Positions 41,068-45,643 of a stretch of 64,000 bases of DNA are shown piece by piece. Source of the stretch: Minisyncoccota bacterium (lineage in GTDB: Bacteria > Patescibacteriota > Minisyncoccia > Phycocordibacterales > UBA2100). The DNA is taken from positions 1,279 through 65,278 of the forward strand of contig DATDWX010000006.1 of NCBI GenBank assembly GCA_036517335.1. The letters are read 5' to 3'. Numbering within the stretch: position 1 is the stretch's first letter; every line of letters begins with the position of its first letter. The position numbers and the translations under genes were made by a program. Under the pieces are notes generated by a model. The model was given only the letters and a program-made list of their open reading frames with translations, made no database searches and was not told the DNA's origin.

Positions 41068-42111
41068 TCACTTTCTTACCCAGTATCTGTTTTTCAGAGT
41101 TTTGCTCAACCGATGCGCGTCGGCGTGTTTCAGTGCGCCCAAATAGGATTGGAGAACCGCGTTCATTTCAGCGTCTTCGATGGCTCCGTTCCGGTAAAAA
41201 TAATAAGCATGTCTGATCTTGCGAAACATCCGCTGTTTGCTTTTCTCGCGCATCAGCCGATGATGCGGGAACTGAACGTACCCGAGAAAGTCTACTCCCT
41301 TGTGGTACTTAATTATTTCCACTTTATCCGGATGCAACCCAAGCTTGAGTTTTTCTTGCAGGAACTGTTCGATGGGGGCGAGCAGTTTTTCAAGTCCCGC
41401 TTTGTCGCTGGAAACGAGAATAAAATCGTCGGTGTAGCGGACGTAATGCTTTATCTTCAATTCTTGTTTAACAAACTGGTCAAACTCGTTCATGTACACG
41501 TTGGCAAAGAGTTGCGAAGTCAGATTGCCGATGGGCACGCCTCGCGCGTGAAAGAGGTCAGGGCGGCCGGACTCAAAGCTGTCAACGATTTCTTTCAGCA
41601 ACTGCATTACTTCCGGATCCTTGATCCGCCGCGCCAGTATTGCAAGCAATATCTCGTGATCGATGCTGTCAAAAAACTTCCGGACATCGCACTTCAAGGC
41701 ATAACACTCTCGTGTGCCGTTGCGGCTCACAGCGCGAAGCATCTGCGCCAGTCGCCCCACGCCCCTGTGCGTGCCCTTGCCAATGCGGCACGAAAAGGAG
41801 TCGGCAATGAAGCCTGGTTCGAAAATCGGATTGAGCATTTTGAAAATCGCGTGATGCAGCACACGGTCGCGCACCGTAGCTTTGTGAATATGTCTGCGTT
41901 TCGGATCAGTGATGTAGAAGCCGGTATACGGCCCATGCTTGTATATTTTGTTTCTAAGGTCTCGGTGCAACTGAAAAATATACTGCTCCACCTTTTGCTC
42001 GAAATTCATTACGTCTGCCTTGTTTCGCTTCTCGCTTTTAAATATGTCCCATGCCACGAACAGATGTTCGGCCGAGGTCATTCTCTCGAATATTCGCTTG
42101 TACGTTTTCAT
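41068..42111 (-). CDS. Diversity-generating retroelement (DGR) reverse transcriptase
   Basis: 347 aa. RT motifs include the catalytic YTDD (RYTDDFILV) and the DGR-specific IGNxxSQ motif (GVPIGNLTSQLFANVYMNEF) in place of the QGxxxSP of group II intron and retron RTs. Confidence 0.85.
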   Translation of the reverse strand: MKTYKRIFERMTSAEHLFVAWDIFKSEKRNKADVMNFEQKVEQYIFQLHRDLRNKIYKHGPYTGFYITDPKRRHIHKATVRDRVLHHAIFKMLNPIFEPGFIADSFSCRIGKGTHRGVGRLAQMLRAVSRNGTRECYALKCDVRKFFDSIDHEILLAILARRIKDPEVMQLLKEIVDSFESGRPDLFHARGVPIGNLTSQLFANVYMNEFDQFVKQELKIKHYVRYTDDFILVSSDKAGLEKLLAPIEQFLQEKLKLGLHPDKVEIIKYHKGVDFLGYVQFPHHRLMREKSKQRMFRKIRHAYYFYRNGAIEDAEMNAVLQSYLGALKHADAHRLSKTLKNRYWVRK

Positions 42112-42117
42112 ATATGA

Positions 42118-42464
42118 ATGACGCTGACATTCCCATTCTCAAAAAGTCCTACGACCTCTATCGCACTTTCAACGAGTACCGAAGGGTGGTGCCCAAGGCC
42201 GACCGCCATACGATCTACGAGCGTAGCGAGAATGCGATCCTCGACATGGTCGAGTACATACTCGAAGCCGGATACAGCAAGAGCGGCGACAAGGTAGCAA
42301 TTCTTGAACGCGCGAGCGTGAAGCTCAACCTATTGCGCTTTTTTGTACGGCTCATGAAAGAGACGCGTTCTATCGACACGAAGAAATATACCGTTCTGCA
42401 AGCTCACATCGATGAGATTGGCAGGATGCTCGGCGGGTGGATACGCTCGCAGGGGAGTAAGTAA
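42118..42464 (+). CDS. avd: DGR accessory variability determinant (Avd; four-helix-bundle protein, 23S rRNA-intervening-sequence protein family)
   Basis: About 115 aa (MNDADIPILKKSYDLYRTFNEY...LLRFFVRLMKETR...AHIDEIGRMLGGWIRSQ) with Avd-like helical segmentation and a basic C-terminus. It is divergent from the RT gene. Confidence 0.7.
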
Positions 42465-42513
42465 GCGAAAGGGCATCCTCTCGGATGCCCCAACGCCCGG
42501 TGAGGAGTGACTT

Positions 42514-42643
42514 CGGGACGGACACCGACACGGAGCCATAGTTCTCATTCGGCTTGTCGACGTCGTTCATGTCGAACTTCAGCTTGTCGTCGTTGAAGTT
42601 GAGGTACGGCGAGTTCGAGAACTCGGCCTCGTCGTCCGGACGT
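42514..42643 (-). repeat. DGR template repeat (TR), 130 bp, minus-strand sense
   Basis: The reverse complement aligns over 130 bp with the target gene 3-prime end (43964..44093). The 21-22 mismatches all fall at TR adenines (for example AAC to AGC/GGC/CGC/GTC, GAC to GGC, AAG to AGG/GGG). The last 27 bp are identical. Confidence 0.85.
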
Positions 42644-43169
42644 ATGCCTTCGCCCGTCCGTGGCACCGAAGCTCGAACGTCTTTCCTGTTGGCAACAGGC
42701 GGCGCTCTCACTCCTGAATTTTATCCGGCAGCAGGGGCTCCAAATAATTACATTGAGCTCAATCCTCTGCCTTGAACGAAGGCAAGCAGTATCTCCTCAC
42801 ACCGGCACTCTCTCGCGAACCGTGATCCGCAAAACTCTGGCCTGTTTCTCATCCAGCAGGATGACCTACTGGGTCGGAAGAGAAAGAGTTCGGCGACGGC
42901 AATCCGTGAACGGCCGTGCATTAGCCTAGACTCGTAATAAAGTATACCCTAGGAAGTCCTTGACCTATATCGTGATTTTGCCCACCACAAGTCGCTCCGC
43001 TCTTGACTAGGTGGCTCAATCCTGATATAGTGCCAGGCGGTCTTTGAAAACATGGATCACTAGTTGAGGCGAGCTTTTTGATGCTTGAATAATGTAGGCA
43101 CTAAAAAGCCCGCCTCACAAACGAGGCAGCCGCAACTGCTGAAGCGGATTCAGCGCAACCTGAGAAAGG

Positions 43170-44099
43170 ATGGCTCCGATGGTAACATTGGCTCCGTCTG
43201 TTACCCACAGCGATGACAAGGGCCGCAAGTTCATGGACATCGTCGGGACGGCATACGACAAGGCAAAGCTCCCCGAAGATGAAGCGCAAAACGTCAACGA
43301 CGCACCCGGTCTTGCCGAGGTGGTCGCCGGCTTCATCGCCGACAATCGGTCTTCCAACAAGTACAAGAAGGAGGAGGTCAAGCCGCGCTGGCCCTATCCG
43401 GCCAGCTACAAGCGCGAAGCGATCGAGCGGCAGATCGACATCCTGCGCTCGGCGGCGAACTTCCCGTTCATCGATCCGGATCCGGCGATCAAGTACTACC
43501 GCGAGGTGTACGGGTCGCTCCGGCAGCCGGAATGGGTGGAGGGGCCGTTCATCATCATGCCGACCTCGACCTTGGCCAAGCACTTCTTCCCCGAAATCAC
43601 CGACGTGGCCGATCAGCATTGCCGCGCCGTCAACATCGGGATCGAGAAGCTCGGCGCGTCGCGTCCGTTCCACAACTGGCGTGCAGGCGAAATCACGACG
43701 GATCGTTTCCGGCGGAAAGCCCGCTACGTCCCGATGTACGACCGGCTCTATGCGACACAGCCGAACAGCGACCTGATCGTCGTGGGCGGCCAGTACGGCA
43801 AGTTCCACGGTGGCCAGCCGATGCGTCGTGCGCTGGAGCGGATGCAAGGCCAAGTGAGCGAGCTTCCCGCCGGTGCGCTCGAGGGTGTCGTCATGGCACT
43901 CGCGAACCCGACCCGGTACTCCAAGTGGGAAGAGCTGGACACCGACCTTCCGGCGGACGAATTCCGTCCGGGCGACGAGGCCGGGTTCTCGGTCTCGCCG
44001 TACCTCAGCTTCGGCGGCGACAGGCTGAGGTTCGGCATGCGCGGCGTCGGCGGGCCGCTTGAGCGCTATGGCTCCGTGTCGGTGTCCGTCCCGCAGTGA
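43170..44099 (+). CDS. DGR target (variable) protein. The N-terminal ~265 aa are of unknown function, and the C-terminal VR is presumably C-type-lectin/FGE-like. No obvious signal peptide.
   Basis: 309-aa ORF whose last ~43 codons form the variable repeat. The C-terminus ...RPGDEAGFSVSPYLSFGGDRLRFGMRGVGGPLERYGSVSVSVPQ matches the TR-encoded ...RPDDEAEFSNSPYLNFNDDKLKFDMNDVDKPNENYGSVSVSVP. Confidence 0.8.
   Translation: MAPMVTLAPSVTHSDDKGRKFMDIVGTAYDKAKLPEDEAQNVNDAPGLAEVVAGFIADNRSSNKYKKEEVKPRWPYPASYKREAIERQIDILRSAANFPFIDPDPAIKYYREVYGSLRQPEWVEGPFIIMPTSTLAKHFFPEITDVADQHCRAVNIGIEKLGASRPFHNWRAGEITTDRFRRKARYVPMYDRLYATQPNSDLIVVGGQYGKFHGGQPMRRALERMQGQVSELPAGALEGVVMALANPTRYSKWEELDTDLPADEFRPGDEAGFSVSPYLSFGGDRLRFGMRGVGGPLERYGSVSVSVPQ
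43964..44093 (+). repeat. DGR variable repeat (VR) at the 3-prime end of the target gene
   Basis: See the TR entry: 130-bp match with only adenine-specific differences and a conserved 27-bp 3-prime end (the presumed IMH region, tatggctccgtgtcggtgtccgtcccg). Confidence 0.85.
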
Positions 44100-44196
44100 T
44101 CCTCGCATCTCGAATCCTCGGATCTTTTGATTTCTTGATCCCTGGGTTCGAAAATTTTTCAGGGCTGTCTACTCGCTGGGCAGCTCTGCTTTCTTT

Positions 44197-44264: not shown

Positions 44265-45008
44265 ATGAACGAGGGGATCAAGGTTATTTTGGCGCCAGAG
44301 CAGTTGGGGACCTTTTTTGGGATTCCCATTACGAATACTTTGCTGATGAGCTGGGTGGTCGTGGCACTCCTACTCGTCGTTGCCGTTCTCGTAGGTAAGC
44401 GCTTGCAGCTCACGCCGTCTCGCCCCCAGGTGCTCTTCGAGTGGCTCGTCGAATTCGTGTACGACTATATTGCCGAGATTTTGGAGAGCCGGGAGCTTGC
44501 GCGCAAATTCTTTCCATATCTCTGTACCGTCTTCCTGTTTATTTTCGTCTCAAATCTCATTGAATTCACGCCCGGCATTGGCTCCATCGGATTGTTTGCG
44601 CATGACGGGGAATTTTTTCCGCTCTTGCGCAGTGTAAACACCGACCTAAACGTCACTTTGATGCTCGCCATCCTTTCCTTCCTCGTCATCGAGATCACGG
44701 GCATCCTTGTCATCGGCGCTGCAAAATACGCCGGCAAATTTCTCAATTTCCGCCACGGCTTTGTTGGATTTTTCGTCGGTATTTTCGAATTTCTCTCCGA
44801 ACTCTCGCGCATCGTTTCGTTTTCGTTCCGTCTGTTTGGCAATGTATTCGCTGGCGAAGTGCTGATACTCGTCGTCATTTTCTTCCTGCCGGTCGTCGCG
44901 CCCGTGCCGGTCATGATGTTTGAGCTCTTTGTGGGCTTCGTGCAGGCCGCTATCTTCGCGCTTCTGACGCTCTTTTTCATCAAAATAGCCATCATGGACC
45001 CGCATTGA
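44265..45008 (+). CDS. atpB: F-type ATP synthase subunit a
   Basis: 247 aa from MNEGIKVILAPEQLG, with 5-6 TM segments and the conserved Arg region (LSRIVSFSFRLFGNVFAGEVL). Confidence 0.9.
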   Translation: MNEGIKVILAPEQLGTFFGIPITNTLLMSWVVVALLLVVAVLVGKRLQLTPSRPQVLFEWLVEFVYDYIAEILESRELARKFFPYLCTVFLFIFVSNLIEFTPGIGSIGLFAHDGEFFPLLRSVNTDLNVTLMLAILSFLVIEITGILVIGAAKYAGKFLNFRHGFVGFFVGIFEFLSELSRIVSFSFRLFGNVFAGEVLILVVIFFLPVVAPVPVMMFELFVGFVQAAIFALLTLFFIKIAIMDPH

Positions 45009-45011
45009 TCG

Positions 45012-45311
45012 TTGAATATAAGAGTCATGATGCGTTTTGAATCTCCATACGGCCACATTGTGCTCACCGACGAACGCAAGCAACATATCCTTGCGTATCA
45101 TCCCGACATGGCCGACTGTTTTCGGCACTTCGCATTGACGCTTGCAAAGCCGGAGCGCGAGATCCGCTCGGTGCATGATCCATTGGCCATCATCTGCTAC
45201 AAATTTCTTCCACATCGTAAGAAATACCTTGCAATCGTGGTCAAAACGGGCGTACACCCGTTCGTATTAACCGCGTATTTGGTAAAAAGGCTGAGGGGCG
45301 CTACACTTTGA
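45012..45311 (+). CDS. DUF4258-family protein (toxin component of the DUF4258/DUF2283 type II TA pair)
   Basis: 99 aa (...HIVLTDERKQHILAYHP...KYLAIVVKTGVHPFVLTAYLVKRL), a pattern typical of DUF4258. The stop overlaps the start of the next ORF (ATGA). Confidence 0.55.
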   Translation: MNIRVMMRFESPYGHIVLTDERKQHILAYHPDMADCFRHFALTLAKPEREIRSVHDPLAIICYKFLPHRKKYLAIVVKTGVHPFVLTAYLVKRLRGATL

Positions 45312-45535
45312 ACATGCTTAGATACTTCTATGACAAAGAGGCCGATGTGTTTTATTTCTCGCAGGGCGTTCCGAGCGCATCGGATGAGACAATCGAAGCA
45401 GGAGATGACGTGCTTCTGCGCATTGCTCCGCGCTCAAAGAAAGTTCGCGGCTTCACGCTCCTCAACGCCTCACGCCGTTTGCGCGGCACCTCGCGCTCGG
45501 CGGTGCTTCCATTCATACTCGCCCCTACAAGATGA
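45308..45535 (+). CDS. DUF2283-family protein (antitoxin partner of DUF4258)
   Basis: 75 aa beginning MLRYFYDKEADVFYFS, which matches the DUF2283 hallmark YDxEADxLYI. Confidence 0.6.
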   Translation: MNMLRYFYDKEADVFYFSQGVPSASDETIEAGDDVLLRIAPRSKKVRGFTLLNASRRLRGTSRSAVLPFILAPTR

Positions 45536-45584
45536 TCGGCTTCGTGCCGACCAAAATCGCGTTCGACGCGACACCCTCCTCACA

Positions 45585-45643
45585 CTCTTCTTCATCAAAA
45601 TCGCCATCATGGACCCGCATGGGGAGACGCATTGAGCAAATGC
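45585..45643 (+). repeat. Duplicated copy of the atpB 3-prime end (displaced gene end at the cassette junction)
   Basis: ctcttcttcatcaaaatcgccatcatggacccgcat repeats atpB 44968..45005 with one mismatch in a 31-bp core. In frame it reads LLTLFFIKIAIMDPHGETH-stop. Confidence 0.8.

Follow-up and report, generated by a model that had tools for sequence, protein, structure and literature searches.

The window, by which we mean the whole stretch of 64,000 nucleotides that was analysed, carries a DGR whose genes and non-coding features are compiled in Table 1. A repeat search identified an inverted repeat of 133 nt whose two copies, the template repeat (TR) and the variable repeat (VR), are 83% complementary. 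Their base-by-base comparison revealed 22 mismatches, every one of which is an adenine in the minus-strand copy that corresponds to G at 16 sites, to C at 4, and to T at 2. Since the mismatches are adenine-specific in the minus-strand copy, the sense strand of the TR is the minus strand, the same as that of the RT gene, and the VR is on the plus strand. All 22 variable sites are first or second codon positions of the target gene, and the VR ends at the stop codon of this ORF. Read 5' to 3', the minus strand presents the TR, avd in antisense orientation, and the RT gene, in that order.

This geometry of TR, avd, RT, and VR is far beyond chance. Four of the elements by which membership in the DGRs is judged were found at the locus: an adenine-specific TR/VR pair, a target gene that ends in the VR, an RT of the DGR type nearby, and Avd. 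An earlier sequence-only reading of this DNA had placed avd on the plus strand between a TR and an RT gene that are both on the minus strand, which the ORFs, the Pfam matches, and the repeat and base comparisons bear out; its statement that TR and VR have opposite orientations is confirmed by the repeat comparison. It had also reported that the minus strand holds no avd-like ORF, and we likewise found none in the ORF listing or with Pfam.

Table 1. Genes, repeats, and candidate RNA and promoter elements of the DGR locus, with positions counted from the first nucleotide of the window.
Feature	Position	Strand	Description and basis
RT gene	41068-42111	-	347 aa; Pfam RVT_1 E=2.6e-26
avd	42114-42464	+	116 aa; Pfam bAvd PF22296 E=7.7e-18; divergent from RT, convergent with TR
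Candidate terminator and/or Avd-binding hairpin	42470-42491	-	Perfect stem; sequence and fold
TR 3' flank CUCCUCAC	42500-42507	-	Complementary to 42793-42800 in the 5' domain; suggestive only
Template repeat (TR)	42510-42642	- (sense)	133 nt; all 22 mismatches at TR adenines
Structured non-coding RNA domain directly 5' of the TR	42643-42933	-	10 helices, 56 pairs; covariation
-10-like element TATACT, putative DGR RNA promoter	42941-42946	-	TAnnnT conserved among loci
Sigma-70-like promoter TTGACT-17-TATAGT of the target gene	43003-43031	+	Promoter scan, 10/12 matches with TG
Target (variable protein) gene	43170-44099	+	ORF, 309 aa; preceded by Shine-Dalgarno-like GAAAGG
Variable repeat (VR)	43965-44097	+	3' end of the target gene; comparison with the TR

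The RT and avd genes

The RT carries motif 4 of the DGR type ([ILV]GxxxSQ), here PIGNLTSQ, as well as the YxDD motif in the form YTDD, and both are invariant in alignment A1. It has more than 8000 homologues, and those with a name belong to Patescibacteria/Paceibacterota. The N-terminal motif MKxYKxxF is conserved in the same alignment and supports a start at 42111. The start of P0001 (337 aa), which lies 10 codons further downstream, was ruled out for this gene on account of the family-wide conservation of this motif. For avd, a start at 42051, which would give an ORF of 137 aa, was also ruled out: the homologues have a length of 116 aa, and in the form of that length the match to the bAvd profile starts at residue 9. 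Genes for bAvd proteins of 116 aa are present in L161, L162, and L164, three of the closest relatives, at a position matching that of avd here.

The start codons of the two genes point away from each other with only 2 bp between them (CAT-AT-ATG, 42109-42116), and no Shine-Dalgarno sequence was found before RT or avd. Given this spacing and the lack of a Shine-Dalgarno sequence, the signals of each gene would have to lie inside the coding sequence of its partner, or else the mRNAs would be leaderless. A promoter scan returned no sigma-70-like site for RT or avd. In 36 RT/avd junctions inspected for promoters, the only motifs were those that also encode the conserved residues DIPI(F)KK and MKxYK, so that they do not identify a promoter of RT or avd. 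The two start codons also lie inside a palindrome, TTCATATATGAA (42109-42116), and a comparably tight junction, mostly within ~20 nt, is typical of the relatives.

Gene order in related loci

The order found here corresponds to architecture B3, TR-(avd)-RT, which was defined by Wu et al. 2018 (NAR 46:11; PMC5758913) and accounts for 90% of their CPR set. The locus agrees with B3 in that TR and RT are co-directional, avd lies between them on the opposite strand, and there is no further accessory gene. It also resembles B3 and CPR DGRs in its host, a Patescibacteria/Paceibacterota MAG, and in having a target without a recognisable domain, as reported for most CPR targets. Nothing essential is different, the inversion of the target relative to the TR being a minority sub-variant of B3, and TR and VR on opposite strands have already been recorded as a rare variant in the myDGR paper (PMC6602519).

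To place the locus among its relatives, we surveyed 165 related loci, of which 80 were taken from species-representative genomes by means of an RT alignment, 80 from metagenome contigs, and 5 from the contigs with the closest RTs (79-82% RT identity). RT and avd were detected by tblastn, and TR/VR pairs by adenine-biased self-similarity. The avd gene is immediately upstream of RT and divergent from it in 148 of the 165 loci, and the TR-(avd)-RT core is present in 99 (91%) of the 109 loci with a detectable TR/VR pair. The VR is inverted relative to the TR in 13 of these 99 B3 loci, which include all the closest relatives (L161, L162, L164, and L165). The distance between the avd and RT start codons clusters at about -20 to +20 nt in the surveyed loci, with a full range of -145 to +188, and the distance from the TR end to the avd stop codon is 45 nt here, compared with a median of ~20 nt in the relatives. 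Almost all of the related genome loci and of the named RT homologues come from Patescibacteria/CPR MAGs. CPR DGRs are said to be the subject of Paul et al. 2017 (Nat Microbiol 2:17045).

The locus is, then, a DGR of architecture B3 in the subform (target/VR)-TR-(avd)-RT, and this order is the rule in its RT clade. The sequence-only reading had flagged the layout as unusual, a claim that does not survive comparison with the published survey and with the relatives, where the gene order is both common and catalogued. Its suggestion of an architecturally distinct DGR subtype was correct insofar as the subtype is real; it is, however, the one already catalogued as B3. The flagged layout is already known, is the usual arrangement for CPR DGRs, and is recognisable to DGR specialists.

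The same reading had raised a local inversion as an alternative. Such an event, if it had recently affected avd or the target in this genome, would have disrupted a canonical avd-TR-RT cassette and left a non-functional or odd element. Nothing speaks for this other than the difference from the Bordetella phage prototype, and the synteny with the relatives contradicts it, as the divergent avd recurs across many CPR lineages and the closest relatives share the inverted target. The state of the element is equally hard to reconcile with such an event, since every ORF is intact and the TR/VR mismatches are without exception adenine-specific and confined to codon positions 1 or 2. Because the arrangement is common to relatives with RTs only 45-80% identical, we reject the local inversion and regard its probability as negligible.

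The genes flanking the closest relatives' elements all differ, and include Terminase_6C (terminase), a serine recombinase (resolvase) together with a DNA methylase/Vsr, and a transposase (L161, L162, and L164). As a shared (target)-TR-(avd)-RT cassette is found between unrelated flanks, the cassette appears to move as a unit, and the comparison of flanking genes indicates either mobility at the level of the cassette or its carriage on a mobile element.

A structured RNA domain directly 5' of the TR

In the alignment with the three closest relatives, conservation is higher in a non-coding block of ~280-290 nt that adjoins the TR on its 5' side than in the target gene. An nhmmer search with a profile of this 5' domain gave matches in 66 loci, each of them on the TR strand and extending up to the point where the TR begins, and 36 sequences make up the alignment used for its analysis (A2). 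The fold obtained from A2 with RNAalifold consists of 10 helices with 56 pairs, 46 of which show compensatory double changes. Paired cells amount to 95.9%, versus 76.9% in column shuffles, none of which reached the observed value in 500 trials, and 39-48% when the partners were slid. Double-change cells number 405, versus 118 in the shuffles and 49-73 with slid partners, and the covariation score is 0.662, versus 0.281 and ~0.13, respectively. The covariance model built for the domain (R1) scores 219 bits in the window (42639-42954, minus strand) and matches ~131 of the 165 loci, 65 of the 80 genome loci and 66 of the 85 others, always abutting the TR on the TR strand.

Three rare relatives (L035, L040, and L050) have a TR that is inverted relative to the RT, and in them the 5' domain is inverted along with the TR. 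Since the domain stays attached to the inverted TR, the two form one module that is independent of the RT gene.

The search of positions 41900-43300 against Rfam 15 gave no relevant match at E<=10, including RT-10 and the other RT motifs, and the search of the whole window at the gathering score returned tRNAs only. RT-1 to RT-19 are structured RNAs found beside bacterial RT genes, of which RT-10 belongs to a DGR and covers the BPP-1 Sp (Weinberg et al. 2017, PMC5737381). The 5' domain is like them in being a structured RNA that adjoins a bacterial RT, and unlike them in its lack of a match in Rfam 15 at that threshold. We did not find the domain described in Wu et al. 2018, in full-text searches of the literature, or in Rfam, and an earlier description, for example in Paul et al. 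2017, is possible.

The 5' domain also offers a possible contact with the other side of the TR. The TR 3' flank CUCCUCAC (42507 to 42500) and a loop of the domain, GUGAGGAG (42800 to 42793), have complementary sequences. Over the 36 loci, cognate flanks and loops are more complementary than non-cognate ones, with 11 of 5000 permutations reaching the observed value, and the pair AAAGACAU/AUGUCUUU in L116 provides a covarying example. RNAalifold applied to the full-length alignment predicted neither the pairing between 5' domain and 3' flank nor the terminal hairpin described below; it missed both because the flank aligns poorly, and the complementarity was therefore tested directly. The complementarity is modest but has statistical support; the pairing of the loop with the TR 3' flank is suggestive on these comparisons, and resembles the duplex that BPP-1 forms between the sequences on either side of its TR.

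It is plausible, although we hold this tentatively and would put it at somewhat less than an even chance, that the 5' domain represents an undescribed RNA family, present in at least ~131 related CPR DGR loci, and that it constitutes a rearranged DGR RNA whose docking, priming, and stop elements have moved to the 5' side. If this is true, the relocation of the RT- and Avd-docking, priming, and stop elements is what lets avd sit convergent against the TR, and the nearly invariant single-stranded GGAGAUACUGCUUG, which lies beside the loop pairing with the TR 3' flank, becomes a candidate for the priming region.

A hairpin between the TR and the avd stop codon

The TR strand contains, immediately ahead of the stop codon of avd, the hairpin (G)GGGCATCC-GAGA-GGATGCCC(U), followed by UUCGCUUA, which can also be written as GGGCAUCC-GAGA-GGAUGCCC followed by UUUCGCUU. 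A perfect hairpin of 9-15 bp lies in this interval, from the TR to the end of avd, in nearly all relatives with an RT identity of at least 53%, and its sequence differs by locus. Stems of at least 9 bp occur in 49% of 94 non-redundant loci, versus 4.9% of random segments of equal length.

As A and T tracts pair together, a count of T-rich tails anchored on the outermost G-C pair is too low, and we used instead a window of 8 nt after the G+C core, in which at least 5 T were required, together with base-composition controls. By this count, the tail on the TR/RT strand is T-rich in 51 of 57 hairpins (89%), compared with 0-2 windows rich in A, C, or G, and the tail on the avd strand is T-rich in 35 of the 57 (61%). 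In the window the T tail is weak (5/8), and the hairpin is not called by a generic terminator scan. Hairpins with T-rich tails on both strands are the signature of an intrinsic terminator common to convergent units, and the excess on the TR strand points to one that would mainly stop TR-sense transcripts.

A different role has been assigned to stem-loops at this position. The stem-loop right after the TR of BPP-1 (Sp3-33) binds Avd, and stem-loops were predicted after the TR in 207 of 278 DGRs that contain Avd, those of CPR among them, most commonly with 9 bp and tetraloops, which were read as Avd-binding rather than as terminators (Handa et al. 2024, bioRxiv 10.1101/2023.10.23.563531). The hairpin could accordingly be purely an Avd-binding stem-loop of the Sp3-33 kind, with no terminator role and only incidentally placed at the end of avd. 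Those predictions speak for this, as do the loops, which are mostly of four and five nt in the relatives and form a GNRA tetraloop (GAGA) in the window. The stems, however, are perfect and lack the flipped-out bases described for BPP-1, and the T-rich tails on the two strands speak for a terminator shared by convergent units. Binding and termination are, moreover, not mutually exclusive. We consider a purely Avd-binding hairpin rather unlikely, and the roles as terminator and as Avd-binding stem-loop are compatible.

Transcription of the template RNA

Upstream of the 5' domain, the motif TAnnnT lies 3-14 nt before helix 1 in 34 of the 36 loci, versus 17% at random positions, and it is TG-extended in 16 of the 36, versus 1.2% at random positions. 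The corresponding element of the window, TATACT, is without the TG extension and is located ~290 nt upstream of the TR.

We propose that the template RNA is its own minus-strand transcription unit. It would start at the conserved -10 element near 42941-42946, run through the covarying domain of ~290 nt (42933 to 42643) and then through the TR (42642 to 42510), and end at, or be anchored by, the hairpin at 42491-42470 just before the avd stop codon. An RNA that ends or is anchored at this hairpin need not run antisense through avd. The RT and Avd, produced from their divergent genes, would bind this RNA and copy the TR into adenine-mutagenised cDNA, which would then take the place of the VR in the target gene, whose orientation is opposite to that of the TR. 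The 5' domain would probably supply the structured elements that BPP-1 has downstream of the TR, in its 140-nt Sp, and its loop (42793-42800) could pair with the TR 3' flank (42500-42507). The succession of promoter, structured 5' domain, TR, ~20 nt, and hairpin suggests, on comparative sequence grounds, such a unit. We think it likely, with good confidence, that the locus is a complete and apparently functional CPR-type B3 DGR whose template RNA is a separate unit. The weak points of this model are the weak tail of the hairpin in the window, the -10 element without TG, and the lack of an identified RT or avd promoter, from which it follows that read-through from the TR into RT is possible.

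The sequence-only reading had held that any TR-RT co-transcript must run antisense through avd and that the spacer with the cDNA priming site lies inside antisense avd. In this alternative, TR and RT would be co-transcribed, the spacer and priming site would be located in antisense avd, and the antisense RNA would also regulate avd. It draws on the shared strand of TR and RT, which have nothing but avd between them, and on the failure to find an RT promoter, and the weak T tail in the window makes read-through plausible. A further point comes from BPP-1, whose primer lies downstream of the TR, past the Avd-binding stem-loop (Handa et al. 2024, bioRxiv 10.1101/2023.10.23.563531), and this counts against a separate unit.

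The avd sequence itself, however, gives this alternative no support. In a codon alignment of 36 sequences, the normalised third-position entropy of avd, measured at conserved amino-acid columns, is 0.95 over the last 40 codons, versus 0.96 elsewhere. Synonymous sites are thus saturated as far as the stop codon, which leaves no conserved sequence-specific RNA element in antisense avd, and RNAalifold detected no conserved structure there. The conserved, covarying RNA is on the opposite side of the TR, and it remains with the TR as one module in the relatives where both are inverted relative to RT. The T-tailed hairpin is, in addition, oriented to stop TR-sense transcripts in most of the loci that have it. 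Antisense co-transcription through avd therefore seems improbable to us. Neither the obligatory co-transcript nor the priming spacer in antisense avd is supported: the TR has a -10-like element of its own and a terminator-like hairpin after it, and the structured RNA is found 5' of the TR. A separate template RNA is the reading that we retain.

Comparison with BPP-1

The DGR of BPP-1 has the order mtd-avd-TR-brt, and its DGR RNA consists of 20 nt of avd, the TR, and the 140-nt Sp. The two elements have in common the RT and Avd, the adenine-specific transfer from TR to VR, the location of the VR at the 3' end of the target, and a GC-rich end of the homology, as well as a stem-loop shortly after the TR and a possible pairing of the sequences that flank the TR upstream and downstream. 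They differ in that avd is inverted here and convergent with the TR, and in that the stop codon of avd follows the TR after only ~45 nt, too short a distance to accommodate a non-coding Sp of 140 nt. The Sp of BPP-1 carries the primer, cPRT-stop, thumb-ring, and RT-binding elements, and an equivalent 3' spacer of ~140 nt is absent here. What is found here is a structured domain of ~280-290 nt on the 5' side of the TR.

The layout raises the question of how a B3 DGR assembles its RNP for reverse transcription if a spacer does not fit on the 3' side of the TR. The comparative data point to a concrete and testable RNA, made up of promoter, 280-nt structured 5' domain, TR, and hairpin, and the locus is a good entry point to how CPR DGRs assemble their template RNA. 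If confirmed, a separate template RNA would bring the largest reservoir of DGRs in nature within the scope of the priming model that is based on Bordetella.

The target gene and other features of the window

The target protein is 100% identical to P0121, a hypothetical protein from a Candidatus Paceibacterota MAG, and had no match among Pfam and PDB sequences. Its AF2 model is confident, with a pLDDT of 83, and the C-type-lectin-like structural matches of this model are marginal only. Over positions 43250-44150, the target gene has a G+C content of 62-67%, versus ~45-55% in RT, avd, and the flanking genes. The hexamers of its promoter (TTGACT and TATAGT) are conserved in L161, L162, and L164, and this promoter is divergent from the putative promoter of the DGR RNA, at a distance of ~55 bp. 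The leader of the target gene contains a long hairpin, at ~43057-43125, with compensatory changes between loci.

Outside the DGR, a second copy of the final 45 nt of atpB (44961-45005) is found at 45576-45620, with 89% identity. The two copies bracket two small ORFs, one at 45012-45311 that has no Pfam match and one at 45308-45535 with DUF2283, and, judging from this repeat, the segment 44961-45620 has the appearance of a small cassette that entered the 3' end of atpB and duplicated the terminal part of the gene.
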